From the NCBI GenBank assembly GCA_025992705.1, contig DAJPGJ010000001.1, forward strand, positions 399,264 to 463,263: a DNA stretch of 64,000 nucleotides. Reading direction: 5' to 3'. Both the position numbers and the translations under genes were made by a program. Positions 399 to 37,896 of the stretch are shown here, piece by piece; positions within the stretch are counted from its first letter, which is position 1; the number at the start of each line of letters is the position of its first letter. This DNA comes from Coriobacteriaceae bacterium. GTDB lineage: Bacteria > Actinomycetota > Coriobacteriia > Coriobacteriales > QAMH01. A model generated the notes under the pieces. That model was not told where the DNA came from and did not search any database. It worked only from the letters and a program-made list of their open reading frames with translations.

Positions 399-446
399 GG
401 CAATAAGGGGACAGACCCTCGGCTTCGGGAAGAAGGGGACAGACCC
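399..446 (+). repeat. Type A intergenic repeat, 2 direct copies
   Basis: GGCAATAAGGGGACAGACCC at 399-418 and GGGAAGAAGGGGACAGACCC at 427-446, read directly. Confidence 0.9.
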
Positions 447-469
447 TCGATTGTCTGGAAGGGGAGCAT

Positions 470-898
470 ATGGAAGAGAACCGAGTCGGCAAGGTTGCCT
501 ATATTCGCTATGAGGGGGGCATCCTCGGCGAGCGCCACGTCGACAAGCACCTGGATGAGCCGCTTGCCGTGCGCATTGGTGCGGGCCGCGTGGTCAAGGG
601 CATCGATGACGCCCTTCGCACGATGGAGGTCGGCGAGAGCGCCACTCTCATCATCCCTCCCGAAGAAGGCTATGGAGATGCCGACCCCAAGCAAATCAAG
701 TGGTATCCCCGCTCAATCATTCCGCATGGATACGAAATCAAGAAAGACACGATGATCATGTGGGAGAGCGCCGATGGACTGGCCAAACGTCCCGCCATGG
801 TGGTGGACGCGACCGAGGATACGGTGAAGATTGACATGAATCATCCCTACGCGGGCAAGACGCTCGAGTACTGGGTCGAGCTTGTCGACCTTCAATAG
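470..898 (+). CDS. FKBP-type peptidyl-prolyl cis-trans isomerase (SlyD/SlpA-like)
   Basis: 142-aa ORF with RBS GGAAGGGGAG upstream. Carries FKBP signatures (GRVVKGIDDALRTMEVGESATLIIPPEEGYG ... MNHPYAGKTLEYWVELVD). Confidence 0.85.
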   Translation: MEENRVGKVAYIRYEGGILGERHVDKHLDEPLAVRIGAGRVVKGIDDALRTMEVGESATLIIPPEEGYGDADPKQIKWYPRSIIPHGYEIKKDTMIMWESADGLAKRPAMVVDATEDTVKIDMNHPYAGKTLEYWVELVDLQ

Positions 899-910
899 GG
901 AGCGGATGCG

Positions 911-1213
911 ATGTGCTATCCATGCACGAACTGCGGGCGCTGCGGAAAGTTTGATCCCAGCAGCCCGCTGTACACACCCCCGCCAAGTATTCCCTGTCTG
1001 AAATGCGGCGGCACTATCGATGCGGCGACCGGCATTTGCGACAGCTGCGGTGATCAGGCCTTCGTGCCGACAGGCGGCATGATGGCGAGTGCCAACAGCC
1101 TGCGTCCCGACGCCGCTGGCAACAAGGGGACAGACCCTTCGTTGTCGAACGACGCCGTTGGCAACAAGGGGACAGACCCTTTCGAGGAGGGATCACCTCA
1201 TGAAACTATTTAA
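911..1213 (+). CDS. Small Cys-rich zinc-ribbon protein whose last ~30 codons are type A repeat sequence
   Basis: Sequence MCYPCTNCGRCGKF...CLKCGG...CDSCGD shows four CxxC pairs. RBS AGGGAG is upstream. The tail GNKGTDP...GNKGTDP is a translation of repeats 1118-1179, so the true stop and extent are uncertain. Paralogous to 12769-12987. Confidence 0.5.
   Translation: MCYPCTNCGRCGKFDPSSPLYTPPPSIPCLKCGGTIDAATGICDSCGDQAFVPTGGMMASANSLRPDAAGNKGTDPSLSNDAVGNKGTDPFEEGSPHETI
1118..1179 (+). repeat. Type A repeat, 2 identical direct copies 42 nt apart
   Basis: GGCAACAAGGGGACAGACCC at 1118-1137 and 1160-1179, just upstream of the RBS of the gene starting at 1200. Confidence 0.9.
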
Positions 1214-3533
1214 AGGTCAGGGCACGGCCGATCTTGGCAAGCCGTGGCGCTTCGAAGAAGACGGCCTCACCGTCACCCGCGGTTGCGCGTGGTCTCCTCC
1301 GGGATGTCACCCCGTCGGCTGCGGAATCAAGACCTACGTGAACTCAAACGGCGAGCTCGTGCGCATCGAAGGCGATGAGAACCATCCGGTTACGGGCGGT
1401 CGTCTCTGCGTCCGCTGCCTGACGATGCGCGATTACGTCTACAACCCAGACCGCGTCCTGTATCCCATGAAGCGCGCCCGCGAGGACCGCGGCAAGAACA
1501 AGTGGGAGCGCATCACCTGGGACGAGGCCTTCGACACGATTGCCGAGAAGGTCGCTTACTACAAGGAAAACTACGGGGCTGAGTCCATCCTCATGCAAGG
1601 CGGCACTGGCCGCGAGGGTGGCCCCATGCTTCCCGCGTATGCTCAAGCTGCACTCGGCACGCCGAACGCCTCGCAGCCCTTGAGCGGATACTCGTGTTAC
1701 ATTCCGCGCGTCGCGGGCACGACCTACGTCACTGGCGTGGCATATCCCGAGATGGACTACGCCGGTGGCCTGCCCGGCCGCTACGACGACCCGGCCTTCA
1801 CGCTGCCGGAGCTCATCGTGTTCTGGGGCAAGGATCCGCTGCCCACTAATGGCGACGGCCTCTTCGGCCACGCCGCCATCGACATGATGCGCCGCGGCTC
1901 CAAGCTCATGAGCATCGATCCGCGCGTCAACTGGGTCTCGACGAGAGCGGATTGGCACCTGCGCCTGCGCCCCGGCACCGACGCCGCCCTCGGCATGGCG
2001 ATGCTCAACGTCATCATCTCCGAGGACCTCTACGACCACGACTTCGTCGAGAAGTGGTGCTACGGCTTCGAGCAGCTCGCCGAGCGCGTCAAGGAGATGC
2101 CGGTCGAGAAGGCGGCGGAAATAACCGGCGTCGATGCTGGCCTCATCGCCGAGGCCGCCCGCGTCTACGCCGCGGCCAAGCCCGCGCAGATCGCCTGGGG
2201 CCTTGCCATCGACATGAAGTCCAACGGCATGCAGGCGGGCCATTGCATACTCGCCCTCGAGGCCATCACCGGAAATATCGACGTGCCCGGCGGCCAGCTC
2301 GTCGGCGACGTCAATGACGGCCTCGAGCTCGGCTTCGGCTGGAACGAGCTCGGCCCCGAGCTCCAGGGCAAGATTCTGGGCCTCAAACGCTATCCGGCGA
2401 TGGTGAGCTTCGTCCTCAACGCGCACTGCGACATGGTGCTCGACACGCTCGAGACGGGCGAGCCCTACCAGTTCAAGATGGCGGGCTTCGAGGATTGCAA
2501 CGGCCTGGCTGGCACGGATTGCGCCCAGCCCCAGCGCTGGCACGATGCGTACCAGAATCTCGAATGGTGCTTCGGCATCGACGTGTGGCTCACGCCGACG
2601 ATCCAGGCGACCTGCGAGCTGTTCCTCCCGCTATCCTCGACCGTCGAGCACGATAGCGTGGTCTACAGCCATTACGGCGCATCTCCCATCACGATGGGCG
2701 CCATCAACAAGTCCATCACGGTGGGCGAGGGCAAGGGCGATGCCGAGATCATGTACGAGATAGGTCGTCGCTGCATGCCCGTCAACTTCGGGCGCTTCAA
2801 GAACTTCTACGAGTTCCTCGAGTATTACCGCCTCAATGGCAAGACGACTTTCGAGGAGCTGCGCGAGGAGGTCGTGCACCAGAAGACCGAGACGCTCTCC
2901 TATCGCAAATACGAGACGGGCAAGCTGCGCCCCGACGGCATGCCCGGCTTCAACACGCCGACCGGGCGCGTCGAGCTCTATTCGACGATGTTCAGGCAGT
3001 TTGGGGTCGATCCGCTGCCCTTCTACGAGGAGCCGCAGCTTTCGCCGGTCTCCACGCCGGAGAAGATGGAGGAGTATCCCTTCGTGCTCACGACGGGCGC
3101 GCGCACGTATTGCTACTTCCATTCCGAGGGCAAGCAGATTCCGTACCTGCGTGAGATCAACCCCGATCCGCTCATCGAGATCAATCCCGAGGATGCGCTC
3201 AAGCTTGGAATCGCGGACGGCCAGTGGGTACGCGTGAGCAACCCCTTTGGCTCGTGCGTGCTCAAGGCCAAGGTCACTCAGACGGTGTATCCGGGTCTCG
3301 TCATGGCGCAGCACGGCTTCTGGTTCCCCGAGGAGGATGGCGAGGAGCCGCATCTCTACGACGTTTGGCGCTCCAACATCAATCTGCTCATGCCGCACTT
3401 TTACGTGGGGGAGCTGGGATTCGGTGCGCCGTATAAGTGCCTGATCTGCAAGGTCGAGCCTATCGAGGAAAGCTACGACACCGACATGCAGGCTATCTGG
3501 AATCGCTATAGCCAGCTTGTCGTGCCGGAATAG
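1200..3533 (+). CDS. Molybdopterin (bis-MGD) oxidoreductase catalytic subunit, DMSO-reductase superfamily, no signal peptide (paralog 1 of 4)
   Basis: 777 aa from ATG 1200 with RBS GAGGAGG. The track ORF starting at 1089 is an extension through repeats. N-terminal FeS Cys cluster CAWSPPGCHPVGCG...CVRC, with length and motifs typical of the family. No RRxF twin-arginine motif. Clear paralog of 3710-6001. Confidence 0.85.
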   Translation: MKLFKGQGTADLGKPWRFEEDGLTVTRGCAWSPPGCHPVGCGIKTYVNSNGELVRIEGDENHPVTGGRLCVRCLTMRDYVYNPDRVLYPMKRAREDRGKNKWERITWDEAFDTIAEKVAYYKENYGAESILMQGGTGREGGPMLPAYAQAALGTPNASQPLSGYSCYIPRVAGTTYVTGVAYPEMDYAGGLPGRYDDPAFTLPELIVFWGKDPLPTNGDGLFGHAAIDMMRRGSKLMSIDPRVNWVSTRADWHLRLRPGTDAALGMAMLNVIISEDLYDHDFVEKWCYGFEQLAERVKEMPVEKAAEITGVDAGLIAEAARVYAAAKPAQIAWGLAIDMKSNGMQAGHCILALEAITGNIDVPGGQLVGDVNDGLELGFGWNELGPELQGKILGLKRYPAMVSFVLNAHCDMVLDTLETGEPYQFKMAGFEDCNGLAGTDCAQPQRWHDAYQNLEWCFGIDVWLTPTIQATCELFLPLSSTVEHDSVVYSHYGASPITMGAINKSITVGEGKGDAEIMYEIGRRCMPVNFGRFKNFYEFLEYYRLNGKTTFEELREEVVHQKTETLSYRKYETGKLRPDGMPGFNTPTGRVELYSTMFRQFGVDPLPFYEEPQLSPVSTPEKMEEYPFVLTTGARTYCYFHSEGKQIPYLREINPDPLIEINPEDALKLGIADGQWVRVSNPFGSCVLKAKVTQTVYPGLVMAQHGFWFPEEDGEEPHLYDVWRSNINLLMPHFYVGELGFGAPYKCLICKVEPIEESYDTDMQAIWNRYSQLVVPE

Positions 3534-3568
3534 GGAGGGGGAATTACGAGGAAAGCATCTCACCTGGT

Positions 3569-3658
3569 GGCAATAAGGGGACAGACCCCCAAGTGCCGGG
3601 CATGGCAACAGGGGGACAGACCCTCTGCCATCGCAGGTGGGAAGAAGGGGACAGACCC
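3569..3658 (+). repeat. Type A repeat, 3 direct copies (spacing 35 nt)
   Basis: Copies at 3569-3588, 3604-3623 and 3639-3658 lie between the two molybdoenzyme genes. Confidence 0.9.
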
Positions 3659-3709
3659 CTACATGTCGACCCCTACATGTCAAAGAAACAGAGAGGAAGG
3701 GAAGGAAAC

Positions 3710-6001: not shown

Positions 6002-6012
6002 GAGGGGAAACC

Positions 6013-6360
6013 ATGAGAAACGGACTGCTGATTGACTACGAGTTCTGCACGGGCTGCCAGTCCTGCGAGGTCGCGTGCCAGAAGGAGCATGGGTTCGAGG
6101 CTGGCACCTGGGGTATTCGCGTCCTTGACGAGGGCCCCTGGGAGGTCGATGCGAAGACCATGAACTGGAACAAGATTCCCACGCCCACGACGCTGTGCGA
6201 CCTGTGTGCCGAGCGCGTGCAGAAGGGCAAGCTCCCGAGTTGCGTGCATCACTGCCTTGCGGCTGTCATGAAGTTCGGCCCAATCGACGAGTTGGTGAAG
6301 GAGATGGACAAGAAACCCAATCAGGTCATGTTCGTCCCTGGACCGTATATCTGCAAATAG
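6013..6360 (+). CDS. Small 4Fe-4S ferredoxin-type electron-transfer subunit (8 Cys, 115 aa)
   Basis: ATG 6013 with RBS GGAGGGG at 6001-6007. Motifs CTGCQSCEVAC and CDLC...CVHHC are present. Homologous to the 112-aa proteins at 18360 and 21132. Confidence 0.85.
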   Translation: MRNGLLIDYEFCTGCQSCEVACQKEHGFEAGTWGIRVLDEGPWEVDAKTMNWNKIPTPTTLCDLCAERVQKGKLPSCVHHCLAAVMKFGPIDELVKEMDKKPNQVMFVPGPYICK

Positions 6361-6370
6361 CATCGTGCGT

Positions 6371-6395
6371 GGGGCCGGGTCTTGTACCCGGCCCC
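6371..6395 (+). terminator. GC-rich hairpin GGGGCCGGGT-cttgt-ACCCGGCCCC after the ferredoxin gene
   Basis: Perfect 10-bp stem 11 nt after stop 6360. No U-tract. Confidence 0.5.
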
Positions 6396-6412
6396 ATTGC
6401 ATCGCCGCAGGT

Positions 6413-6590
6413 GGCAACAAGGGGACAGACCCCCGGCGTTGTCATTTCGAGCGAAGCGAACGAAGTGAGCGTAGTCGAGAAATCTCGGTTTACGCTCCGC
6501 TAGCAGCGACGGGGAAGATTTCTCCACTCCGGCGCTTCGCGCCTCCGGTCGAAATGACAAAAGGAGCTACGGCAACAAGGGGACAGACCC
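6413..6590. repeat. Mosaic repeat block A - B - B(inverted) - A
   Basis: Type A at 6413-6432 and 6571-6590. Type B (TGTCATTTCGAGCG...GTCGAGAAATCT) at 6440-6485 and an inverted variant at 6516-6559. Confidence 0.9.
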
Positions 6591-6630
6591 CTATCAGCGC
6601 GAGGGATTTTATAGGAGAGCAACCGAAGGG

Positions 6631-8596: not shown

Positions 8597-8753
8597 GGCA
8601 ATAAGGGGACAGACCCCCGTTTGTCAGGTGTGGCAAGCGGGGGACAGACCCTCCTGCATCATCGCAGATGGCAATAAGGGGACAGACCCTCCATTGTCAT
8701 TTCGAGCGCAGCGCAGCGAAGTCGAGAAATCTTGGCGATAAGGGGACAGACCC
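8597..8753 (+). repeat. Mosaic repeat block A - A - A - B - A
   Basis: Type A at 8597-8616, 8632-8651, 8670-8689 and 8734-8753. Type B at 8695-8732. Confidence 0.9.
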
Positions 8754-9588: not shown

Positions 9589-9749
9589 GGCAATAAGGGG
9601 ACAGACCCTCCCGCATCACCGCAGGTGGCGATAAGGGGACAGACCCCTGTTTGTCATGCGTGGCAACAAGGGGACAGACCCCTGTTTACGGACCCCTGTT
9701 TACGCCGCCCGCTTCCCGCCGCGCGTGTGAGTTGCAAGGGTCTGTCCCC
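9589..9749. repeat. Type A repeat, 3 direct copies plus 1 inverted core
   Basis: Direct copies at 9589-9608, 9627-9646 and 9662-9681. Inverted GGGTCTGTCCCC at 9738-9749. Also a 14-nt direct duplication GACCCCTGTTTACG at 9677-9704. Confidence 0.9.
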
Positions 9750-9784: not shown

Positions 9785-11740
9785 ATGCCGAGTTTCAACA
9801 ATTTCCCTCACATCTTCACGCCGATTAAGATTCGCAATTTCGAGCTGAAGAATCGCCTGGTTTTCTCGCCGGTCGTCTCAGGTCATGCGGGTGTTGTCGA
9901 TGGTCAGGTTACCGAGGCGCTCGTGCAGTTTCTCGGCGCCCAGGCTCGCAGTGGCGTCGGCATGGTCACAATCGGCGCATCGCCCGTCGACCAAGGCCGT
10001 GCACGCGATTTCTTCGGAAGCCTTTCCGTTTGCAAGGACGAAGACATTCCCGGCCTGCATCGCCTCGTCGAGGAAGCACATCGCTATGGCGCAGCGATTT
10101 CGTGCGAGATCCTGCATGCGGGGCGCATCGCGCAACCCAACGCGCTCGCCGGACGCAAGGCATGGGTGCCGTGGCTCACGCCCGACATGGACCCCGAGCT
10201 GTTCGAGGAAGTTACCGAGGAGCAGATGGACGAGGTCATCGACCTCTTCTGCAAGGCGGCCGTGCGTCTGCGCGACGCGGGTTTCGACATGGTGCTCATC
10301 CACGGCGCGCATGGCAACTTCGTGAGTGCGTTCTTCTCGCCGCTCACCAATCAGCGTACCGACGAGTACGGCGGATCCTTCGAGAACCGCATGCGCTTCC
10401 CGCTCAAGCTCGTGAAGGCTGTGCGTGAGGCCGTGGGCGAGAACATGGCCATCGACTTCCGCATCAGTCAGAACGAATACGTCGAAGGCGGCACCACGCT
10501 CGAGGATGTCATCACCTTCCTCAAGGCGGCCGAGCCCTATATCGATGATGCGAATCTCTCGGGCGGCTGGATTTTCGACCCGGTCTACGTCAAGTACATG
10601 ATGCCGGGTTATCCGCAGGAGCTGTGCCTCAACATCCCGCGCACGGCCATCGTCCACGAGCAGCTCGATATTCCGGTCACCTGCGTCGGTAACATCCCCA
10701 ACATCGAGACCGCCGAGCAGATTCTTGCCGAGGGCAAGGCCGACATCGTCGCCTTCGCGCGCAATATCCTTGCCGATATGGACTTGGTGAACAAGGCGTA
10801 TCGTGGCGAGGAGGACACTATCCGCCCGTGCCTGCGCTGCATCGAGTGCGCCTCGCGGCCTGCCGTGGGCGGTGGCGTGCGCTGCTCGGTCAATCCGCAG
10901 CTTGGCCGCGAGCTTTACTATCGCGAGATACGGCCGGCACTTACCAAAAAGAAAGTGGTCGTCATCGGTGGTGGTCCGGCTGGCATGATGGCGACGCAAA
11001 CCGCCGTCAAACGCGGCCATGACGTCGTACTATTCGAGCGCGATGAAGAGTTGGGAGGCCGTCTCAAGGAAGCGTCGGTCCTCTTCTGCAAGGAGCCGTA
11101 CCACAAGCGCTATCTCGCCTGGGACAAGCGTGCAACGCTCGAGAGCGGCGCGGACATCCGGCTGGGTGTGGAAGCGACGCCGGAGCTCGTCATGGCGGAG
11201 AATCCTGACGAGGTCATCGTCGCCATTGGCGGCGAGCACATCTGCCCGCCCATCCCCGGCGCCAACGGAGACAATGTCATCACGGTGACCGAGGCCGACC
11301 TGGGTCTGGCGCCCATCGGCAAGCGCGTCGTGATCGTGGGTGGCGGCTTTTCCGCGCTCGAATGCGGTATCCAGCTCGCCTACGAAGGCCATGAGGTCAC
11401 GGCCATCGATGCGCTGCCCGAGGACAAGCTCTGGCGCGAGGTCATGAACGAGCTACGCAGCGGTCTCATCGAGCTGCGCGATCGTTACGGCGTGCAGCTC
11501 GTTGACGAGGCCATGGTGAAGGAGATTCGCGAGGGGTCCGTCGTGTATACACGTGGTGGCGAGGATTTCGAGATTCCCGCCGACACGGTTGTCATGGCAT
11601 GCGGCTTACGTCCGAACAAAGAGATCGTGCAACAGTTCGTGGAAATGATGCCGCAGGTCACGGTCGTGGGCGATGCGCGCAAGACGGGCAACATCTTCTC
11701 GGCGAACATGAGCGCCTTCGATGCGGCGGTAGAACTCTGA
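9785..11740 (+). CDS. OYE-like FMN / FAD-NAD(P) two-domain oxidoreductase, paralog of 6631-8586
   Basis: 651 aa. Motifs HGAHGNFVSAFFSPLTNQRTDEYGGSFENRMRF, CLRCIECASRPAVGGGVRCSVNP and VVVIGGGPAGMMAT. Confidence 0.85.
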   Translation: MPSFNNFPHIFTPIKIRNFELKNRLVFSPVVSGHAGVVDGQVTEALVQFLGAQARSGVGMVTIGASPVDQGRARDFFGSLSVCKDEDIPGLHRLVEEAHRYGAAISCEILHAGRIAQPNALAGRKAWVPWLTPDMDPELFEEVTEEQMDEVIDLFCKAAVRLRDAGFDMVLIHGAHGNFVSAFFSPLTNQRTDEYGGSFENRMRFPLKLVKAVREAVGENMAIDFRISQNEYVEGGTTLEDVITFLKAAEPYIDDANLSGGWIFDPVYVKYMMPGYPQELCLNIPRTAIVHEQLDIPVTCVGNIPNIETAEQILAEGKADIVAFARNILADMDLVNKAYRGEEDTIRPCLRCIECASRPAVGGGVRCSVNPQLGRELYYREIRPALTKKKVVVIGGGPAGMMATQTAVKRGHDVVLFERDEELGGRLKEASVLFCKEPYHKRYLAWDKRATLESGADIRLGVEATPELVMAENPDEVIVAIGGEHICPPIPGANGDNVITVTEADLGLAPIGKRVVIVGGGFSALECGIQLAYEGHEVTAIDALPEDKLWREVMNELRSGLIELRDRYGVQLVDEAMVKEIREGSVVYTRGGEDFEIPADTVVMACGLRPNKEIVQQFVEMMPQVTVVGDARKTGNIFSANMSAFDAAVEL

Positions 11741-11857
11741 CAAAAAGGGGACAGACCCCTAGTTGTCATTTCGAGCGCAGGCGCGAAGCGCCGGAGTCGA
11801 GAAATTCCGCTCAGCAAAAAGGGGACAGACCCCCACGGGAATGGCGGGGACAGGCCC
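11739..11857 (+). repeat. Mosaic repeat block A - B - A - degenerate A
   Basis: Core GGGGACAGACCC at 11747-11758 and 11821-11832, and GGGGACAGGCCC at 11846-11857. Type B at 11764-11806. The block begins inside the stop codon of the preceding gene. Confidence 0.9.
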
Positions 11858-15589: not shown

Positions 15590-15629
15590 GGACCCCCAGA
15601 CTTCATCAGGTCTGGGGGTCCGTTTTTTT
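15590..15629 (+). terminator. Rho-independent terminator
   Basis: GGACCCCCAGAC-N8-GTCTGGGGGTCC followed by T7 (15623-15629). Confidence 0.85.
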
Positions 15630-15658
15630 GAAAATCGGAGATCAGAATCAGAGAATCA

Positions 15659-15679
15659 GGGGTCTGTCCCCATCTTCCC
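15659..15679 (-). repeat. Type A repeat, single inverted copy
   Basis: The + strand reads GGGGTCTGTCCCCATCTTCCC, which is the reverse complement of GGGAAGATGGGGACAGACCCC. Confidence 0.85.
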
Positions 15680-15994
15680 ACCAGCGGCGATGAGGGCCTG
15701 TTCCCGCTTTTCATTCTTCTGCGGCATATGGCGATGCGACGGGCGAATGACCGCCACGTAAATCATCATTTTTAATATGCAATTCCCCCTTCATATACTC
15801 CATCTGTTTGACAGCTGAATGCGTCGTCAATCGTGCGTCCATGTGACACAAACCACCACCTTGTGCACGCATGTGCCGTAGGAGTCGCAGGGACTTGGCG
15901 ATCGAGCATGACATGCCACCCAAGAGGCATGTCGCGAATCGCGCATTCTGCAGTGTCGGAGTTGTTAGTTTGCACGAGAGTGAGAGGAGTGACG

Positions 15995-18370: not shown

Positions 18371-18698
18371 CGCATTGATGATCGACTACGAGTTCTGCAC
18401 CGGCTGCCACGCCTGCGAGGTCGCCTGCAAGAAGCACCTCGAGGTCGGCGAGGGCCAGTACGGCATCCACGTCCTGCAGGACGGCCCCAGGGAGCTTCCC
18501 GACGGGCGCTGGGAGTACAACTTCCTGCCCATGCCCACGTCGCTTTGCGACATGTGCGCGGGAAGGATCGCCGAGGGCAAGGACGCCGCCTGCGTGCACC
18601 ACTGCCCGGCGCACTGCATGTACTACGGCACGGCCGAGGAGATGGCGGCGCTGGCCGCCGGCAAGGCCAAGAGCGCGGTGTTCGTCCCCGTCGCCTAG
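18360..18698 (+). CDS. Small 4Fe-4S ferredoxin-type subunit (112 aa)
   Basis: Motifs CTGCHACEVAC and CDMC...CVHHC. 11-nt overlap with the upstream catalytic gene. The protein is identical to 21132-21470. Confidence 0.85.
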   Translation: MSANALMIDYEFCTGCHACEVACKKHLEVGEGQYGIHVLQDGPRELPDGRWEYNFLPMPTSLCDMCAGRIAEGKDAACVHHCPAHCMYYGTAEEMAALAAGKAKSAVFVPVA

Positions 18699-21142: not shown

Positions 21143-21470
21143 CGCATTGATGATCGACTACGAGTTCTGCACCGGCTGCCACGCCTGCGAGGTCGCCTGC
21201 AAGAAGCACCTCGAGGTCGGCGAGGGCCAGTACGGCATCCACGTCCTGCAGGACGGCCCCAGGGAGCTTCCCGACGGGCGCTGGGAGTACAACTTCCTGC
21301 CCATGCCCACGTCGCTTTGCGACATGTGCGCAGGGCGCATCGCCGAGGGCAAGGACGCCGCCTGCGTGCACCACTGCCCGGCGCACTGCATGTACTACGG
21401 CACGGCCGAGGAGATGGCGGCGCTGGCCGCCGGCAAGGCCAAGAGCGCGGTGTTCGTCCCCGTCGCCTAG
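21132..21470 (+). CDS. Small 4Fe-4S ferredoxin-type subunit (112 aa), duplicate of 18360-18698
   Basis: 335 of 339 nt are identical to the first copy by direct comparison. All 4 differences are synonymous. Confidence 0.85.
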   Translation: MSANALMIDYEFCTGCHACEVACKKHLEVGEGQYGIHVLQDGPRELPDGRWEYNFLPMPTSLCDMCAGRIAEGKDAACVHHCPAHCMYYGTAEEMAALAAGKAKSAVFVPVA

Positions 21471-21518
21471 CGTGTCGTAAGGCCTAGGGCGCTAGGCTCA
21501 TGGCCGGGGCTAGCAATC

Positions 21519-21567
21519 GGGGGACAGACCCTTTATTCCGTCGCCAGCGGGAAAAGGGGGACAGACC
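21519..21567 (+). repeat. Type A repeat cores, 2 copies (second degenerate)
   Basis: GGGGGACAGACCC at 21519-21531 and GGGGGACAGACC(t) at 21556-21567. Confidence 0.85.
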
Positions 21568-21580
21568 TTCGATTGCCTGA

Positions 21581-22908: not shown

Positions 22909-22928
22909 GGGAAGAAGGGGACAGACCC
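22909..22928 (+). repeat. Type A repeat, 1 copy
   Basis: CCGCAGGTGGGAAGAAGGGGACAGACCC, located between two MFS genes. Confidence 0.9.
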
Positions 22929-22972: not shown

Positions 22973-24358
22973 ATGGGTGGCGTGAACCGCGGCGACCGGA
23001 CGATGCTCGCCGTTCTCATTGGCATGGGCTTCGTCGCCGCATTCAATGAGAACACGGTCAACGTCGCTCTCGTCTACATCCAGGCGGAGTTCGATGTCTC
23101 GAGCGTCGCATCGCAGTGGCTGGTGACGGGCTACATGATCGTCTCCGCGATAACGAGCGCGATCTGTGCGTTCCTGCAGCATCGCTTTCCCCTGCGCCGC
23201 ATCGTCTTTGCCGCTGGGATTGTCTTCGTGGCAACTTCGTTCGCGGCGATGCTGGCGCCGGGCTATCCGCTTCTCCTGACCTTTCGGTTGCTGCAAGCGA
23301 TCGGCACGGGGCTCTTCGTTCCCATCATGGTGACGACAATACTGAAGGTGACGCCACGCGAGCAGATGGGGACGGTGCTCTCGGTCGGAAACATGTGCCT
23401 GACGCTCGGCCCGGCGCTCGGACCGGTCGTGACAGGCGCCATGATCTCGCTTTTGGGCTGGCGCACCGTCTTTCTCCCCGGCGCCATCGTCATGGCGCTC
23501 TTGCTGGTGGCAGCGGTGTTCTTCGTATCCAACGTGCACGAGACAGCTGCGAGCAGGCTCGACGCGCCCTCGGTTTTCCTCGCATCGGTTGGGCTCACTT
23601 TCTTCATGTACGGGCTTACCCAGATATGCTCGGACATCGTCATGAGCGCCTGCACCCTCGCGATAGGCATCGTGTTCCTGGGAGTCTTCGCACGCAGACA
23701 GCATCGCATCCCCGACCCGTTTCTTAATCTATCCCCGTTTACCAATCCTGCGTATGTACTTGCTTGCCTAATGCTTGGGATTGCAATGATGACTTCGTTT
23801 TCCACGACGGTTCTGCTGCCGCAATACCTGCAGGAGGGCCTTGACGTGTCGGCGCTGGTGACCGGGACGCTCATCTTGCTGCCCGTCATGTGCAACGTCG
23901 CGTTCAGCGTTCTGGGAGGGCGCCTGTTCGACACCCATGGCGAGACGCCGTTGTTGCCATTGGGATATCTTCTCATGGCAATTGGGATGCTCGTGATGTG
24001 CTTGGCAGGACGAGGGCTTTCGCTGGTATTCGTGATCACGGGTGCCTGCGTCACATTCGTTGCCTTGGGACTCGTCTACACCGCGACGCAGGCGGCGGGA
24101 CTCAAGCGCTTGTCCCAGGCCGAGCACGCACACGGCGTCTCGATCATGAACGTTCTGGTGATGGTGGCCGGCGCTCTGGGAACCTCGCTATATGGTGGGG
24201 TTGCCCAGGCGGGCACGGGCGGAGCGATTGCACGTGGGATTTCGGAAGGCGCGGCCCAGGGAGCCGGTTTTGGCGATGCGATGATCCTCGGCACCGCGCT
24301 TGCGGCTGGTGCTCTCGTCCTCGCCCTCATCCTCGGCAAGAAGCGCGCTGGGAATTAG
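22973..24358 (+). CDS. MFS transporter (drug:H+ antiporter-like, about 14 TM segments)
   Basis: 461 aa. The N-terminal stretch MLAVLIGMGFVAAFNENTVNVALVYIQAEF...QWLVTGYM is typical of EmrB/DHA2-type MFS proteins. Confidence 0.8.
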   Translation: MGGVNRGDRTMLAVLIGMGFVAAFNENTVNVALVYIQAEFDVSSVASQWLVTGYMIVSAITSAICAFLQHRFPLRRIVFAAGIVFVATSFAAMLAPGYPLLLTFRLLQAIGTGLFVPIMVTTILKVTPREQMGTVLSVGNMCLTLGPALGPVVTGAMISLLGWRTVFLPGAIVMALLLVAAVFFVSNVHETAASRLDAPSVFLASVGLTFFMYGLTQICSDIVMSACTLAIGIVFLGVFARRQHRIPDPFLNLSPFTNPAYVLACLMLGIAMMTSFSTTVLLPQYLQEGLDVSALVTGTLILLPVMCNVAFSVLGGRLFDTHGETPLLPLGYLLMAIGMLVMCLAGRGLSLVFVITGACVTFVALGLVYTATQAAGLKRLSQAEHAHGVSIMNVLVMVAGALGTSLYGGVAQAGTGGAIARGISEGAAQGAGFGDAMILGTALAAGALVLALILGKKRAGN

Positions 24359-24404
24359 GGGACAGACCCTTCCTTGTCGCCGGTGGCAACAAGGGGACAG
24401 ACCC
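24358..24404 (+). repeat. Type A repeat, 2 copies (the first overlaps the stop codon)
   Basis: Core at 24358-24369 and a full unit at 24385-24404. Confidence 0.9.
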
Positions 24405-25606: not shown

Positions 25607-25637
25607 GAGGGTGCTGCGCGTGCGGCACCCTCCTTTT
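25607..25637 (+). terminator. Rho-independent terminator
   Basis: GAGGGTGC...GCACCCTC stem followed by CTTTTTC. Confidence 0.65.
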
Positions 25638-25646
25638 TCATGATAT

Positions 25647-25666
25647 GGCAATAAGGGGACAGACCC
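25647..25666 (+). repeat. Type A repeat, 1 copy
   Basis: GGCAATAAGGGGACAGACCC. Confidence 0.9.
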
Positions 25667-26527: not shown

Positions 26528-26623
26528 GAAATGTCCTCCTCAGGAATCCGGTGGTGAATTGATTCACGTCGATTCTAAGGTCCTGAACTGGCATTTCCCT
26601 CATTCGACTCTGGAATGGGAACC

Positions 26624-26636
26624 GGGGGACAGACCC
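26624..26636 (+). repeat. Type A repeat core, 1 copy
   Basis: GGGGGACAGACCC, located upstream of the - strand SDR gene. Confidence 0.85.
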
Positions 26637-27150
26637 CCGATTGCGACCCTCGATTGTCGGAATACATCCTGCAGCTTTGGCACAACGTTTCCGTTGGCAT
26701 TTCGCTCACAATCGAACGGGCTCGCATCTATGTCGCCTCAGCCGTGATATAGTTGTACTAGCATCTCGCGCTTGGCGCGAGGGCAGCCAAGCGCGCGGGG
26801 ATGTCCCCGCGCATTTTGTTTATCAGGAGGGTGGGAGTGTCGGGTACTCTTCAAGCTCTTTGGTGGCCGCCGTTCCTTCAAGGCCAATCACCTCAAGCAG
26901 ATGCGTAAGAAGCTGCACCATTAATTGACATTTCCAACCTAATCACCTGTCCTTTGTGTCACTCCGGGGACACCTTTCTCAATGCCGCATATGAACTCTC
27001 TATTCCTTTTCGCGAATAAAGCGCTATACTCTGCTCACGCCATGATTTGCCCGAAGGCCGTCGTGCAGCGGCCTAGGGAACACCCATTGGTTGCACCGGG
27101 TGCATCGAGGTGGCGCACGATGCATCGCCTCTCGCAAAGGAGCGTGCAAC

Positions 27151-29958: not shown

Positions 29959-30012
29959 GGCAACAGGGGGACAGACCCCCGAACCCAAAGCTGACAATAG
30001 GGGGACAGACCC
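29959..30012 (+). repeat. Type A repeat, 2 copies
   Basis: GGCAACAGGGGGACAGACCC at 29959-29978 and GACAATAGGGGGACAGACCC at 29993-30012. Confidence 0.9.
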
Positions 30013-30024
30013 CCGAACCCCTGA

Positions 30025-30042
30025 CCCCCGCCCCCCCCCCCC
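30025..30042 (+). repeat. Homopolymeric tract C5-G-C12
   Basis: Counted directly: C at 30025-30029, G at 30030, C at 30031-30042. The tract lies 157 nt upstream of the ABC substrate-binding gene. Confidence 0.95.
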
Positions 30043-30198
30043 TCCTTGCGCACGCACGATACTGCACCAAACCGATTACCGACATTCATCTACCATTAGC
30101 ATTAATCCAATAGAGACATTTTGCACTTAACTATTTGCATGCGTCCAATAGATGCTATAGTCTCCGCGCTCAGTCACGATTCACGAAAGGGAGACCAC

Positions 30199-32287: not shown

Positions 32288-33214
32288 ATGCCGCGCAAGA
32301 TCAAAACGCACCTGGTCATCTCACATGTGCTCCTGCTTGCGCTGCTGGGCATCATTTTCCTCATGCCCAATACGCGCACCAATGTCGCACCCGTAACAGG
32401 CGAAATCATCGCCATCTGCTGCATCGAGCTCTTCTATCTGCTCGCCCTGGCTCTAGGACGGCGCAAGGATCCCATGCCAGAGGGCTCATCCGACATCATC
32501 CTGATCGTCTGGGTGATTTTCATCGCCTGGGAACTTGTTGGCCCCAAGCTGGGCATTGCCCATAACGTGCTCATTCCTTCGCCGGAAAACGTCTTCAACG
32601 TCTTCGTCGAATACAGCGGCGAGCTTGCGATGAACGTGGTCTCCTCGTTGCAACTGCTGCTCACGGGCTACATCCTGGGGACGATTCTCGGCATCATCCT
32701 CGGCATCATCTGCGGATGGATTCCGCGCCTGCGTGCGATTTTCTATCCGATTGCCAACGTGTTTGCGCCCATCCCGTCGGTCGTGTTCACGCCGTTCCTC
32801 GTCATCATCATGCCCACCTACCGCTGGGCGGCCATCATGGTCATCCTCATTGGCGTGTTCTGGCCGCAGTTCCTGTCCATGATCCTGCGTGTCGGGTCGC
32901 TGCCGCCGGCAATCGTGGATAACACGCGCGTGCTCATGGTCAATACGCCGACCATGATCAGCAAGGTCATCATTCCCTATATCATCCCGGACATCCTCAA
33001 GGGCCTGCGTGTGTCGCTCACCACGGGTTTTCTGATGCTCATGTACGCCGAGAGCTTTGGCGCCAAGTCTGGCATCGGATACTGGATATCCAATGCCAAC
33101 GTGTTCGCGAACTACGCGAACATCTACGCGGGCATCATCACCTGCGGCATGACAGTCACGGTGCTCAACTACTTCTCCGGCTGGCTGCAGAAGAGGTTCA
33201 CCACATGGCGTTAG
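32288..33214 (+). CDS. ABC transporter permease
   Basis: 308 aa. The start abuts the upstream stop. Multiple TM segments with an EAA-like loop. Confidence 0.85.
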   Translation: MPRKIKTHLVISHVLLLALLGIIFLMPNTRTNVAPVTGEIIAICCIELFYLLALALGRRKDPMPEGSSDIILIVWVIFIAWELVGPKLGIAHNVLIPSPENVFNVFVEYSGELAMNVVSSLQLLLTGYILGTILGIILGIICGWIPRLRAIFYPIANVFAPIPSVVFTPFLVIIMPTYRWAAIMVILIGVFWPQFLSMILRVGSLPPAIVDNTRVLMVNTPTMISKVIIPYIIPDILKGLRVSLTTGFLMLMYAESFGAKSGIGYWISNANVFANYANIYAGIITCGMTVTVLNYFSGWLQKRFTTWR

Positions 33215-33223
33215 GGGAGTGGT

Positions 33224-33410
33224 GGCAATAAGGGGACAGACCCCCAATCGCCGCAGGTGGCAATAAGGGGACAGACCCCCGATTACCGCAGGTGGTGATA
33301 AGGGGACAGACCCCCGATTACCGCAGGTGGTGATAAGGGGACAGACCCCCCACTGTCATTTCGAGCGAGCGGAGCGAGTCGAGAAATCTTGGAAATAAGG
33401 GGACAGACCC
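33224..33410 (+). repeat. Four tandem 35-bp type A units, then B, then A
   Basis: Type A at 33224, 33259, 33294 and 33329 (exact 35-nt period). Type B at 33354-33389 and type A at 33391-33410. Confidence 0.95.
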
Positions 33411-33461
33411 TTTACGGCGAATGCCGATACAGGTTGCAAATCAAAAAGCGAAAGGATTGAA

Positions 33462-34583
33462 ATGAACAACGAGGTCAAGGAACTCATCGACAAGGTGTAT
33501 GACGAGGGCGTGCGTGGCGCGTCCCAGCCGCGTGAGGTGATCATCAGATTGCTGGAGCTCGACCCGAGTTCCGAAGAGGTTTCCTATCTGAAGGAGAAGG
33601 CCGCCGAGCTGGCGCACATCGCCACGGGCAACAGCGCCTCTATCTCGGGTGCCATCGGCGTGGACCTGTGCAGCTGCGACATGAACTGCAAGTTCTGCGC
33701 GTTCGGGACCGAGTGGGGGCTTGTCGAGGAGGACGTGATCTACTCCAAGGAGGAGATCATTGAGCTCGTGCGCGCCTATGTTGAGGCTGGTGTCACCACC
33801 ATCACCCTGCGTTCGACCGAGTTCTACGACATGAACGTGCTGTCCGAGTGGCTCGCCGACATTCGCGAGGCGGTGCCGGGCAGCTATCTCATCAACCTTA
33901 ACGTGGGCGAGATGAGCCCGGCCATGGCCGAGGCGGCCTACCAGGCCGGTGCCACGAGCGCCTATCACGTGATCCGCATGCGCGAAGGCATCGACACCCC
34001 CTTTGACGTCGACCTGCGCTGGAAGACCGTCGACGCCATCAGCAATTCGCCGCTCCGATGGCTCACCTGCGTCGAGCCCCTGGGTGTCGAGCACACCAAC
34101 GAGGAGATTGCGGATCGCATTCTGGAGAATCTGGCTCATCGCCCCTATGCGATGAGCGTCATGGCTCGCGTCAACGTGCCCGGTACGCCCTTCGAGGGCA
34201 TGGATGAAATCAGCGAGGAGCGCATGTTGCACTTGCTGGCGACGCTGCGTCTAGTGGTGGGCACCAAGGTGCGCAGTTGCGGCATGCACCCGGCCATTCC
34301 GGCGGCTCTCTACGCCGGAGGCAGCAACTTCACCGTCGAGCGAGGGGCCAATCCTCGAGACACCACCTTCAACGAGGACGTCTGGCGGGGCTTTACCGTG
34401 GAGGAGGCCAAGGCGCTTATCGAGGAAGCCGGTTTCGTCTGCCGTCCCGAAAACCCCGATCCGCGTTTCCCCATCGACGGCAAGCAATGGTGGAAGGTGG
34501 GTGACCCTGCCGACTACATCATGCCCGATCCCGTCGAGAACGCCGGCGCTGGTTGCTGCTGCGGCCCCCGCAAGAAAAAGTAG
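33462..34583 (+). CDS. Radical SAM protein (BioB/HydE/MqnC-like core)
   Basis: 373 aa with the CxxxCxxC motif CDMNCKFCAF. Subfamily cannot be assigned by eye. Confidence 0.65.
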   Translation: MNNEVKELIDKVYDEGVRGASQPREVIIRLLELDPSSEEVSYLKEKAAELAHIATGNSASISGAIGVDLCSCDMNCKFCAFGTEWGLVEEDVIYSKEEIIELVRAYVEAGVTTITLRSTEFYDMNVLSEWLADIREAVPGSYLINLNVGEMSPAMAEAAYQAGATSAYHVIRMREGIDTPFDVDLRWKTVDAISNSPLRWLTCVEPLGVEHTNEEIADRILENLAHRPYAMSVMARVNVPGTPFEGMDEISEERMLHLLATLRLVVGTKVRSCGMHPAIPAALYAGGSNFTVERGANPRDTTFNEDVWRGFTVEEAKALIEEAGFVCRPENPDPRFPIDGKQWWKVGDPADYIMPDPVENAGAGCCCGPRKKK

Positions 34584-34588
34584 CAGCT

Positions 34589-34706
34589 GGCAACAAGGGG
34601 ACAGACCCTCGTGGCAACAAGGGGACAGACCCCGCAATTGTCATTTCGAGCGAGCGAAGCGAGTCGAGAAATCTGGTAACAAGGGGACAGACCCCTGTCT
34701 GTCCCC
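34589..34706. repeat. Mosaic repeat block A - A - B - A with a terminal self-hairpin
   Basis: Type A at 34589-34608, 34613-34632 and 34675-34694. Type B at 34639-34674. GGGGACAGAC-ccct-GTCTGTCCCC at 34683-34706. Confidence 0.9.
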
Positions 34707-34776
34707 AATTTCCCTCCATTCCCCCAAAGCCGCTACAATAGGGCGCATCAATACACCGCGCGAAAGGAATCATGGA

Positions 34777-36120: not shown

Positions 36121-36128
36121 GAGCACTC

Positions 36129-36410
36129 ATGGAAAATCAAGCGCAGGAGCCGGAGTTTCTGTATCGCACGCATGGCACGTGTTCGCGTGCCATCAAGTTC
36201 GATCTCGACGATGAGGCGCGCGTGAAAAACGTCGAGTTTATCGGCGGGTGCAACGGCAACGCCAAGGGCATCGCTTCCCTCATCGAGGGCATGCCGGCGG
36301 ATTGGGTCATCGAGCGTTGCGCGGGGACGCAGTGCGGCGGCAAGGCAACGTCCTGTCCCGATCAACTCTCCCGTGCCCTCACCTGGGCCATCGAGCAACG
36401 GCAGGCGTAG
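36129..36410 (+). CDS. TSCPD-domain small protein (TIGR03905-like, 4-Cys)
   Basis: 93 aa. Sequence GTCSRAIKFDL...FIGGCNGNAKGI...CGGKATSCPDQLS. Confidence 0.7.
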   Translation: MENQAQEPEFLYRTHGTCSRAIKFDLDDEARVKNVEFIGGCNGNAKGIASLIEGMPADWVIERCAGTQCGGKATSCPDQLSRALTWAIEQRQA

Positions 36411-37742
36411 ATGAGCCACGACGGGGACGCGTTCGCAAACAAGAATCCGCAGCTGTCACGACGTGCTTTCTTGCGTCTGGGTGGCGGCGCGCTTGCCTGC
36501 GCGACGGTACTCGGCGCGCCCGCGTTGCTCACGGGTTGCGGGGGCAACTCGGATAGCGGCACGCCAAGCACGCTCGACGTGTCGACCAACGACGTCGTCA
36601 CGCTCGATGCCTTTGCCGAAATCGAGGACACGACGGGATACTTCGAGATCAAGGATCTTGCGCAGTACCCCAAGGGGACGATGCTCTATGCATCCGAGGA
36701 CGTGACGGCGGCGGCGCTGCTTACGGGCGAGACGGCCTCGCCTCTGTCGACCTGCTCGCTCGTCAACCTGGGTACCGGTGCCATGACGCCGGCGCTTGAT
36801 CGCGCCGTCAATCATGACATGGGCTACAGCATCTTTGCCGTGCGCGCATCCAAAGAGCTGCTCGTCTGGGTCGAAAGCAACTACCTCACCTCGGATTGGA
36901 TGGTGTACTGTGCCACGATCTCCGATGGCAGGTTAACTGGTCAGCCCGTCAAGCTCGACGAGGGCAATGTCGAATTCGACACGCCTGAGATAGCCGTCAT
37001 CGGCACAGCGGCGTACTGGATCGTGCAGCCTGCCGAGGGCGGTCCGCGCACGACGGAGAACTCGTACCTGCGCGTTGCCACGGGCGGCTCGCGTTCGTCG
37101 GACATGATTACTTCGGAAGGCCGATTCAACGGCGGACTCTCCGTAAGCGGGCAAGTGCTTACGGCCATGCCGAGGGCCAAGGCGTCGAGCGGCGTGTACT
37201 ACGAGCTCACGGCGATTGCCGCAGGCTCGGGGTCGGTGGTTGCGTCTCAGGTGATGCCGCACTCGTTCCGCCCGTCAAACGCCATCTACATGAACAACGC
37301 CTTCGCGTTCACGATTCCCGCGTCCTACGATTACGGCGGAGGTATCGCAAACGTCGGTACGTATTACCCGATAGCGGGGAATACGTGGCTGCGCCTGGCG
37401 CGACAGTCACTCACGCCGCCGGGCATCTGCAATGGCTGGCTGTTCGCGAAGTCGAGTTCGCGCACGGTGTTCATCGATACGCAAGAGCAGAAGTACTTCG
37501 TCGTCAACGCGCCTGATGGCTGTACGGATTACGGCGACTATTCGGTATGCACGGGCGAGGTTTCTCGCGTCTACAATTACGCGACCGTCAACAAGTACGA
37601 GGGCACCGAAAGGGCGACGCAGGTCGTCTTGCGCTCGATTACGCCCATCCCTGCTGGTCAAAAGCCTGTTCCGCCTGCTCTGGATCCAACTGATCCCACG
37701 ACACAGCCAAGCACGACCCCCACGGAACCCACCGAACGATAG
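36411..37742 (+). CDS. Twin-arginine-signal lipoprotein, function unknown
   Basis: 443 aa. SRRAFLRLGGGALA followed by lipobox LTGC. The start abuts the upstream stop. Confidence 0.7.
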   Translation: MSHDGDAFANKNPQLSRRAFLRLGGGALACATVLGAPALLTGCGGNSDSGTPSTLDVSTNDVVTLDAFAEIEDTTGYFEIKDLAQYPKGTMLYASEDVTAAALLTGETASPLSTCSLVNLGTGAMTPALDRAVNHDMGYSIFAVRASKELLVWVESNYLTSDWMVYCATISDGRLTGQPVKLDEGNVEFDTPEIAVIGTAAYWIVQPAEGGPRTTENSYLRVATGGSRSSDMITSEGRFNGGLSVSGQVLTAMPRAKASSGVYYELTAIAAGSGSVVASQVMPHSFRPSNAIYMNNAFAFTIPASYDYGGGIANVGTYYPIAGNTWLRLARQSLTPPGICNGWLFAKSSSRTVFIDTQEQKYFVVNAPDGCTDYGDYSVCTGEVSRVYNYATVNKYEGTERATQVVLRSITPIPAGQKPVPPALDPTDPTTQPSTTPTEPTER

Positions 37743-37749
37743 GCCTGGT

Positions 37750-37896
37750 GGCAACAAGGGGACAGACCCTTGCATGTCGTGCGCGGCAATATGGGGACAG
37801 ACCCTTATCTGTCATCTCGACTGATGCGATGAGGGGTCTGTCCCCTTGTCGCTAACAGCCCTCGCGCGGAAATGAAGGGTCTGTCCCCTTATTGTC
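37750..37896. repeat. Type A repeats, 2 forward plus 2 inverted (convergent)
   Basis: Forward copies at 37750-37769 and 37785-37804. Inverted copies at 37833-37852 and 37877-37896. Confidence 0.9.

Follow-up and report, generated by a model that had tools for sequence, protein, structure and literature searches.

A dense family of REP-type repeats in uncultured gut Coriobacteriia, probably maintained by a RAYT-like transposase

Introduction

This study concerns a stretch of 64,000 nucleotides (hereafter the window) from a Coriobacteriaceae bacterium (assembly GCA_025992705.1, contig DAJPGJ010000001.1, positions 399,264 to 463,263 of the forward strand), the first 38 kb of which is interspersed with copies of a short repeat, here called the A unit, built around the core GGGGACAGACCC. 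These units are probably non-autonomous elements of the repetitive extragenic palindrome (REP) type. A single-copy, domesticated HUH/Y1 transposase whose gene lies elsewhere in the chromosome, either a REP-associated tyrosine transposase (RAYT) or an enzyme of the so-called 'TIRYT' type, would copy them, keep them intact and rearrange them. Of the roles proposed in a first-pass annotation of the window, it is the third, that of a non-autonomous mobile element, which is supported by the evidence.

The closest described systems are those of the RAYT-like 'TIRYT' genes, which are flanked by repeats sharing the motif GGGGWSAS, some of which form genome-wide families (Di Nocera, De Gregorio and Rocco 2013, PMC3733652). 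Tagged REPs have been surveyed in eight phyla, the Actinobacteria not being among them, and head-to-tail REP dimers were found to be absent or rare (PMC3733652), while only RAYT groups 2 and 3 have been linked to highly abundant repeats (PMC5581495). Judged by its sequence, the A-unit family is placed in the GGGGWSAS/TIRYT-like branch of the REP/RAYT systems. As in the TIRYT-based 'TIRtrons', a RAYT-like gene is accompanied by GGGGWSAS repeats at a roughly fixed distance, the cores GGGGACAG and GGGGTCAG beside the gene both fitting the motif. The repeats of TIRtrons form genome-wide families occurring in dimers or clusters. However, the published families are 'moderately abundant' and belong to Proteobacteria and Acidobacteria, whereas the present one reaches approximately one unit per kb, is arranged head-to-tail, adjoins its enzyme on the 5' side only and is found in Coriobacteriia. 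The type of system is already known; its novelty resides in the host phylum, in a local density that is very high, and in arrays that run head-to-tail and in the orientation of the genes.

With the REPs and bacterial interspersed mosaic elements (BIMEs) of Escherichia coli and their enzyme TnpA-REP (PDB 4ER8), the A units share the form of short, extragenic, imperfect palindromes, a number that varies between strains and, in the sister lineages, a single-copy HUH/Tyr enzyme for which TnpA-REP is the best fold match. They differ in that the GTAG tetranucleotide is missing, the arrays are direct while BIMEs alternate, and the enzyme, at 265 aa, carries an extra C-terminal helical domain and matches TnpA-REP only weakly in sequence (E = 0.026). 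In the REPIN-RAYT systems of Pseudomonas fluorescens SBW25 and of Neisseria (dRS3/NIME) the transposase is likewise single-copy, vertically inherited and syntenic, and repeats with conserved ends and variable spacers persist at given loci across species; the mosaic arrays located next to variable genes are a further feature shared with dRS3/NIME. The replicating REPIN unit is, however, an inverted doublet of ~100 bp, while in the present family inverted pairs number 13 versus ~190 direct pairs.

Some resemblance is also seen to repeats of other kinds. Mycobacterial interspersed repetitive units (MIRUs) and the pneumococcal BOX elements are intercistronic, co-oriented with their operons, arranged in direct tandem or modular arrays, and variable in number between strains, features that the A units share. 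MIRUs are 46-100 bp long and contain small overlapping open reading frames (ORFs), and no transposase is known for them. Rickettsia palindromic elements (RPEs) are inserted in frame into coding sequences, as are A units in a transporter loop, in a giant adhesin and in the tail of a small ORF described below, although RPEs are 100-150 bp in length, are CGTC-tagged and have no known dedicated transposase. Finally, the IS200/IS605 elements (IS608, ISDra2), which move by 'peel and paste', share the catalytic fold of the enzyme and provide the basis for the excision and insertion of single-stranded modules, and for the strand asymmetry, that are proposed below; they differ in carrying their own transposase, in being multi-copy, and in being cut beside subterminal hairpins at tetra- or pentanucleotides rather than in the loop.

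The first-pass annotation knew of no described element with this sequence. This holds for the exact sequence: in a full-text literature search the cores matched nothing but eukaryotic or viral primers unrelated to them. The core does, however, fit the published GGGGWSAS motif (PMC3733652). Among the papers listed by a further literature search, none joined a REP phrase with Eggerthella or Coriobacteriia terms, and BLAST of one array against plasmids gave no match.

Results and Discussion

Distribution and orientation of the A units

A scan of the window for the 12-mer core GGGGACAGACCC returned 40 exact copies and two with one mismatch, against 0.26 expected from dinucleotide shuffles (maximum 3). 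An extra 9-mer copy at 34697 on the minus strand, which forms a perfect palindrome and a 10-bp hairpin with the neighbouring plus-strand core (34683-34684), brings the total to 43, the number given in the first-pass annotation. The core matches span positions 407-37888 only, with 37 of the 42 on the plus strand and five on the minus strand, and they occupy 17 gaps with one to five cores each, in agreement with the initial description. Likewise, the absence claimed for the region after 37897 stands, no core having been found between 37.9 and 64 kb even when up to two mismatches were allowed. Among gaps of at least 50 nt, as delimited by crude gene calls, 17 of 22 in the first part of the window contain cores versus none of 10 in the second (Fisher p = 4.7e-5). 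Two elements of that description need qualification: most copies are indeed intergenic, but units 1126 and 1168 encode the tail of ORF 911-1213, and the confinement to an 'accessory half' is true locally but not in sister genomes, where units are found beside core genes, tig and moeA among them.

Recognisable degenerate cores are scarce (~4, versus 40 perfect ones). In 306 kb of sequence from the clade, consisting of contig fragments, 340 cores were counted, nearly all of them outside genes and a few in frame within genes. When the window and related loci are taken together, direct spacings between cores have modes of 35 and 38 nt and a main range of 22-62 nt, and neighbouring pairs within 150 nt comprise 12 inverted pairs of the '+-' type and one of the '-+' type versus ~190 direct pairs. 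Between co-directional genes, 124 of 139 units have the orientation of the genes and 15 the opposite one (p = 1.6e-22), and the arrays occupy the space from a stop codon to the next ribosome binding site (RBS), the last unit often abutting the RBS within apparent operons. The GC skew over the 64 kb was too weak to tell a replication-strand from a transcription-strand bias.

Structure of the A unit

The unit had initially been described as being ~20 nt long, yet 28 of the 42 window copies extend to an imperfect hairpin of ~33 nt, TGGCAAY-AA-GGGG-ACAGA-CCCC-nn-RTTGYC, with an outer stem of at least 4 bp. Selected units, which are among the better hairpins, fold at -13.5 to -18.5 kcal/mol. The unbiased picture is given by the folding of all 42 window units without selection, in which the inner GGGG/CCCY stem forms in 37 and the fold z-score averages -1.44 on the sense strand and -1.30 on the antisense strand. 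A position matrix of 339 units from the window and its relatives reads TGGCAAYAAG-GGGACAGAC-CC-(C/T), followed at a variable offset by RTTGYC; the final core position is C or T at ~50:50, and the GTAG tetranucleotide, the tag of REPs of the Group 2 RAYT type, is not present in it. Complementarity between a unit's own arms is weakly but significantly higher than that between swapped arms (4.25 versus 4.11 +/- 0.04, reached in 0 of 500 permutations), although only 9% of the units in the clade have at least six of seven Watson-Crick pairs in the outer stem. The arms also covary between lineages: TGGCAAY/RTTGYC in the window corresponds to CACGAT/ATCGTG (CACGAT-GGGG-NCAGA-CCCC-ATCGTG) in two related loci, L037 and L038 (comparison loci, from metagenome-assembled genomes (MAGs) and Logan assemblies, are numbered L001-L043). 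The objection raised against classical REPs, namely insufficient length and a weak palindromic character, is not supported: most units are imperfect hairpins of ~33 nt, and the clade encodes a cognate RAYT.

The lack of a U-tract and of unique spacers, in contrast, was confirmed. GC-rich stems positioned after stop codons might suggest that the units are intrinsic terminators or attenuators, a reading that is nevertheless extremely unlikely: only two of 37 sense units pass a lenient terminator scan, terminator-like sites are no commoner than in shuffled sequence, the units lie beyond the canonical hairpin and U-tract terminators that do exist (15598-15630 and 25607-25640), and in apparent operons it is common for the final unit to adjoin the RBS of the following gene. 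A CRISPR array was rejected on the grounds that the spacers are 10-26 nt long and recur between loci, that there are no more than five units per array, and that the scanned ORFs of the window contain no cas domains.

It is also unlikely, if somewhat less so, that the units are primarily cis-acting RNA or DNA signals, i.e., hairpins for mRNA protection or processing, or regulator or roadblock sites akin to stoperators, that are retained by selection on expression. Such a role would fit the co-orientation with genes (124/139), the filling of the space between stop codon and RBS, the invariance of the core across species whose coding DNA is 75-90% identical, and the C/T alternation in the core, which preserves a G-U pair on the sense strand. 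This last feature had been taken as a hint of a role at the RNA level, but it does not discriminate, given the ~50:50 split and the nearly equal folding of the two strands: it says only that the top strand is the structured one, which could be mRNA or single-stranded DNA serving as the substrate of a Y1 transposase. Against a cis-acting signal, the number of copies per gap varies freely between near-identical strains, the genes next to the units have no functional relation to one another (reductases, tig, moeA, purB, transporters), copies are found in frame in a major facilitator superfamily (MFS) gene and a giant adhesin gene and in antisense orientation upstream of the RAYT gene, sense and antisense strands fold equally well, and the association with RAYT recurs in unrelated taxa. 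Furthermore, at the gathering threshold Rfam recognised only the signal recognition particle (SRP) RNA in the window, with nothing in 1-38000 at E values of up to 1. A promoter scan revealed no enrichment. The stoperator reading and that of a DNA uptake sequence, like those of a CRISPR array and an integron, were rejected on anatomical grounds, which comprise spacers that are short and not unique, the lack of cas or integrase domains in the scanned ORFs, a copy number that varies and the confinement to extragenic sites. A secondary effect of the units at the RNA level is possible, and effects on mRNA, e.g., as protective intercistronic hairpins, would likely be by-products.

A RAYT at a fixed position in sister lineages

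A search for a RAYT or IS200-like transposase, which had been proposed as a check in the first-pass annotation, identified a RAYT gene at a fixed slot in eight sister lineages. In L013 it encodes a protein of 265 aa which matches the Pfam domain Y1_Tnp and the NCBIfam equivalog REP_Tyr_transpos ('REP-associated tyrosine transposase'; 80.2 bits, cutoff 80, E = 1.4e-22). None of the 61 homologues compared departs from H60xH62 and R118-Y119..N123-P124, and both the HUH and the Tyr motif can be aligned with E. coli TnpA-REP. The AlphaFold (AF2) model of the protein (predicted local distance difference test, pLDDT, 83.8) has as its top fold match in the PDB entry 4ER8, representing TnpA-REP in complex with a REP hairpin (E = 3.5e-8, TM 0.76), while the matches to the IS608, ISDra2 and IS200 transposases are ~1000-fold weaker.

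The orthologues are 47-99% identical, all are 260-265 aa in length, and each occurs on one to nine contigs. In all eight sister lineages examined the gene order is constant, i.e., a giant surface protein, a 217-aa gene, RAYT, moeA and, further along, tig. Two to four units are located 180-250 nt upstream of the RAYT start in every lineage for which upstream sequence is available, and in the lineages with the GGGGACAGACCC core these are inverted relative to RAYT and to all neighbouring units. In the lineage of L038 and L039, whose RAYT is 50% identical, 17 cores of the form GGGGTCAGACCC were found in 17.8 kb and none of the form GGGGACAGACCC. The MAG of the window's own species (L026) keeps the synteny up to ~5 kb from the RAYT slot, and the nearest contigs (L028, L041 and L013) are only 89-92% identical to it.

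Several observations weigh against the assignment of the A units to a RAYT. The 64-kb window itself encodes no RAYT, and the presence of the gene in the window's own genome is predicted from the eight sister lineages and from conserved synteny, because L026 retains the neighbourhood of the slot. The NCBIfam score of the L013 protein barely reaches the cutoff (80.2 versus 80). The gene is flanked by units on its 5' side only, the 94-nt gap between RAYT and moeA containing none. The RAYT of L040 is ~50% (51%) identical and yet this locus retains an A core, GGGGACAGACC, so that the match between core and enzyme is not a simple one. Known Y1 transposases cut beside the hairpin and not in its loop, where the break proposed below would lie, and in the metagenome set described below only two of 16 core-proximal duplications start at the nucleotide concerned. 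Lastly, the dominance of head-to-tail pairs is atypical for REP and REPIN families, in which inverted pairs prevail (PMC3733652).

Occurrence of the core in metagenomes

Metagenomes were scanned for two cores of the form GGGGWCAGACCC (GGGG[A/T]CAGACCC) separated by 10-32 nt. Such paired cores were found in at least 120 loci with G+C contents ranging from 0.36 to 0.78, each locus having its own palindromic arms, against ~0.6 expected by our own estimate. A hidden Markov model of the RAYT catalytic domain was searched against the six-frame ORFs of these 120 loci (520 kb in total) and revealed homologues in seven of the 120 listed loci (E = 1e-18 to 1e-47), each adjoining cores, which are positioned upstream, downstream or on both sides of the gene. 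Seven of 120 is far above the expectation for a single-copy gene in 520 kb of random fragments. The finding of a GGGG[A/T]CAGACCCC core beside one enzyme family at G+C contents of 36-78% suggests a single, widespread enzyme-hairpin specificity.

Variation of the arrays between relatives

An exact-match scan for the 20-mer of the repeat in one genome per species returned 27 stretches, 25 of which came from five uncultured gut Coriobacteriia species represented by MAGs; to two of these five the window is 95-98% identical. The check on presence/absence polymorphism between strains that had been proposed for this repeat shows that unit number differs in orthologous gaps. For example, the gap at 340-470 contains 2, 4, 3 and 2 units in the window, L018, L015 and L014, respectively, and that at 33200-33470 contains 5, 4 and 3 units in the window, L012 and L017. 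In orthologous gaps the linkers vary and the core is constant, the flanking genes being 95-98% identical, and the core is invariant even across species in which coding DNA is only 75-90% identical. Adjacent units within an array often differ in linker. Modules of 35-38 nt recur in different gaps (four close pairs versus none in shuffles), and the gaps at 8597-8753 and 9589-9749, on either side of a short-chain dehydrogenase/reductase (SDR) gene, contain matching 35- and 38-nt modules in swapped order.

Four differences in gene content were examined, and each of them has its junctions at arrays. L006 lacks a 15-kb block (11.85-26.6 kb), L001 a 4.8-kb block, and L021 two single genes. Short-read assemblies of the clade also appear to be broken by the arrays: of 48 contig ends among L001-L043, 16 are no more than 150 nt away from a core. 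As nearly every gene in 0-38 kb is bracketed by units of the same orientation, relatives differ in blocks of one or several genes whose junctions lie at arrays, and the core is a short inverted repeat (GGGG-N5-CCCC), the cores might be viewed as the recombination sites of an integron-like or other site-specific gene-cassette system with a dedicated recombinase. This is very unlikely, however, since no integrase or recombinase domain was found among the 40 window ORFs scanned, the genes are large members of operons and have their own RBSs, units also flank core genes in conserved synteny, a gap may contain up to five units instead of one site per cassette, and deletion between direct repeats explains the junctions passively.

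Copies of the repeat were also observed within genes of the comparison loci. In the central cytoplasmic loop of an MFS transporter that is otherwise well conserved, two to four inverted cores lie in frame and are read as GLSP or GSVP, their number varying between species (L031:17409-17450, L035:17269-17315, L028:8491-8546 and L037:11835-11940, in the same gene as L026:5000-5055). The giant surface-protein (adhesin) ORF of more than 6,500 aa contains A-unit-like sequences, such as GGTGGCAATCAGGGGACAGACCCC, which occur in two frames and are read as GTDP and GQTL (L031:1141, 1387, 2035, 3504, 3834, 4209, 4935, 7639 and 7672, with equivalents in L035 and L037).

Duplications at the core and a possible mechanism

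In 328 kb of clade sequence, a scan for exact tandem duplications with a period of 10-20 nt, performed without reference to the core, revealed 24 cases, 15 of which are located within 40 nt of a core. Ten of the 24 start at one and the same nucleotide, at core offset +7, so that in GGGGACA^[GACCCY + 8-9 nt] the bracketed part is present twice (p ~2e-24). These ten are 12-15 nt long and lack microhomology at their ends, and their tails differ, which indicates that they arose in independent events; three further, mirror-image duplications end at GGGGAC^. The window contains two of the +7 duplications, at 3654 and 9677, and other strains have the sequences concerned only once. We propose that these footprints reflect repeated breakage of one strand at the centre of the ACAGA loop.

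These data also bear on the notion that the arrays are plain minisatellites, i.e., MIRU-like variable-number tandem repeats shaped by slippage and unequal recombination only, the Y1 gene being coincidental. The direct tandems with periods of 35 and 38 nt are compatible with it, as are strain differences that amount to one lost period (in gap 1080-1205, the strain difference is a loss of one repeat period) and the affiliation of the host with the Actinomycetota, the phylum of the MIRU-bearing mycobacteria. We nonetheless regard this notion as quite improbable: slippage does not explain why one and the same 13-nt core should recur in over 17 distinct gaps per 38 kb and in genomes with G+C contents of 0.36-0.78, neighbouring units often carry different linkers, the 12-15-nt duplications have one exact start point and no microhomology at their ends, and RAYT is adjacent to the repeats in eight lineages as well as in seven of the 120 listed metagenome loci, which had been chosen on the repeat alone.

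For a REP-type element served by a RAYT, the following mechanism may be envisaged. The RAYT would bind the unit hairpin in single-stranded DNA, cut it and rejoin it, and the arrays would grow and shrink by this reaction, possibly with the addition of slippage or recombination between cores. Displacement synthesis over 12-15 nt after a break at GGGGACA^GACCC, with the displaced 5' end then being joined back, could generate the duplications, and an HUH enzyme covalently held on that end could perform the rejoining. Furthermore, a nick-to-nick module, GACCCC-linker-TGGCAAYAAGGGGACA, might be excised and inserted into another core, which would account for the direct arrays, the mixed linkers and the invariant core. 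A more far-reaching proposal, which is put forward tentatively and is on balance doubtful, is that the RAYT cuts the apical loop (GGGGACA^GACCCC) and moves modules, that the same reaction between distant cores moves blocks of genes, and that the arrays constitute an exchange system for reductase and transporter genes.

Individual arrays and associated elements

Some of the arrays contain a second repeat, the B element, a structure of ~120 nt resembling a miniature inverted-repeat transposable element, with terminal inverted repeats (TIRs) GTCATTTCGAG/CTCGAAATGAC and a DNA fold of -34.9 kcal/mol (z -4.7; full-length copy at 6441-6560). Short B elements, consisting of the truncated left end, are found between A units at 8696-8732, 11765-11806, 33355-33390 and 34640-34675, and the presence of the B element varies between strains. 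The possibility that the B element is part of the A unit was rejected, since clusters without any A unit occur at 52146-52215 and 57955-58180, indicating an independent repeat. The second half of the window is accordingly free of the A unit, as had been stated, but not of small repeats.

The first array (399..446, plus strand) consists of two units (cores 407 and 435) just upstream of the start of an FKBP gene (470). The second (1118..1179, plus) also has two (1126 and 1168) and lies inside the 3' end of ORF 911-1213, directly before the RBS of a molybdopterin (Mo)-oxidoreductase gene that starts at 1200. This small ORF, which is Zn-ribbon-like, reads the two units as GNKGTDP twice and has the C-terminal tail ...GNKGTDPSLSNDAVGNKGTDPFEEGSPHETI. 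L015 has one unit here, and in a sister strain of this kind the tail would be shorter. The region 427-3488 shows mosaic divergence from L018, L014 and L015, with 95-97% identity upstream and 82-84% in the 3' two-thirds of the first Mo-oxidoreductase gene, after which these three loci have an extra, array-bounded block of ~1.8 kb.

At 3569..3681 (plus), three units (3577, 3612 and 3647) are followed by an exact 14-nt tandem duplication, GACCCCTACATGTC x2 (3654-3681), which starts at core +7; in L005, L010 and L023 the duplicated sequence is single-copy and a short B element is present instead. A composite at 6413..6590 (plus) is made up of unit 6421, the full-length B element 6441-6560 (TIRs GTCATTTCGA/TCGAAATGAC) and unit 6579, while L010 and L023 have two A units only at this locus. 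The array 8597..8753 (plus) contains the units 8605, 8640, 8678 and 8742; the last of these four is preceded by a short B element (8696-8732) and abuts the RBS of the SDR gene. On the other side of this gene, 9589..9749 has three plus-strand units (9597, 9635 and 9670), the exact 14-nt duplication GACCCCTGTTTACG x2 (9677-9704) and one inverted unit (9738, minus).

The array 11739..11857 (plus), with units 11747 and 11821 around a short B element and a decayed core at 11846 (GGGGACAGGCCC), forms the left junction of the 15-kb block absent in L006. Within this block, the site 15660..15705 (minus) holds a single inverted unit (15660) and a decayed copy (15694) beyond an intrinsic terminator with a U-tract, and the array 21512..21568 (plus) holds two units (21520, and 21557 with one mismatch), compared to four in L021. 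A single unit at 22909..22928 (plus) directly follows the stop codon of an MFS gene; the next gene, 22973-24358, is absent in L021, where the junction is a five-unit array. Two units (24358 and 24393) are present at 24350..24404 (plus), and a single one at 25647..25666 (plus) is located beyond the canonical terminator 25607-25640. The right junction of the 15-kb block is at 26617..26656 (plus), where a single unit (26625) is accompanied by a 13-nt imperfect half-unit duplication.

The array 29959..30012 (plus; units 29967 and 30001) is a junction of the 4.8-kb block absent in L001, which comprises an ABC transporter and a radical SAM gene; L009 has three units here. Directly after this array, at 30020-30045, lies a long C-rich, homopolymer-like tract, cccccgcccccccccccc, which is shorter and interrupted in L009 and could be a slippage-prone tract or a weak spot of the assembly. 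The largest array, 33224..33410 (plus), has five units (33232, 33267, 33302, 33337 and 33399) with a period of 35, and a short B element (33355-33390) before the last. At 34589..34706, three plus-strand units (34597, 34621 and 34683) are combined with a short B element (34640-34675) and an overlapping inverted core (34697), while L017 has only one plus-strand unit and one decayed inverted unit. The last group in the window, a nested inverted one at 37750..37888, consists of two plus-strand units (37758 and 37793) and two minus-strand units (37834 and 37877), and its composition differs in L001, L012 and L017.

Genomic setting

The first 38 kb of the window encodes molybdopterin oxidoreductases, enoate reductases, SDRs, MFS transporters and a LysR regulator, and the remainder encodes a two-component system, purC, a Tad pilus, TrkA, the bacterial small SRP RNA (Rfam RF00169, 55675-55770, 66.6 bits) and citrate synthase. 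Two adjacent paralogous modules, at 15833-18698 and 18773-21470, each consist of a Mo-oxidoreductase gene and a 112-aa ORF with a G+C content at third codon positions of 0.96; the L021 copy of one module aligns to the other at 79% identity, both carry the hairpin CCTCGCCGACCTCGAGG, and the pair looks like a tandem gene duplication. At 39972-40031, the junction between the ORFs of a histidine kinase and purC contains four tandem copies of a 15-nt unit, GGCAACAAGAAGTAC, which resembles the A unit's left arm in starting with GGCAACAAG but lacks the core.

Conclusions

Descriptions of REP/RAYT systems have so far been confined almost entirely to Proteobacteria and a small number of further phyla, and the surveys cited above list no Actinomycetota. 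The family reported here adds a new host group: in uncultured Coriobacteriia of the human gut it is very dense (~1 unit per kb) and interspersed among the genes for molybdopterin and flavin reductases that typify this group. As unit number varies between strains, the arrays could serve as typing markers, and they mark the junctions of gene gain and loss between relatives. The duplications starting at one core nucleotide provide a concrete prediction of the cleavage site for the processing of REPs by a RAYT, and it is the proposed break site and the link to the turnover of gene blocks that are worth testing. If the tentative exchange proposal were true, a loop-cut exchange reaction would serve the very genes that make gut Coriobacteriia metabolically diverse.

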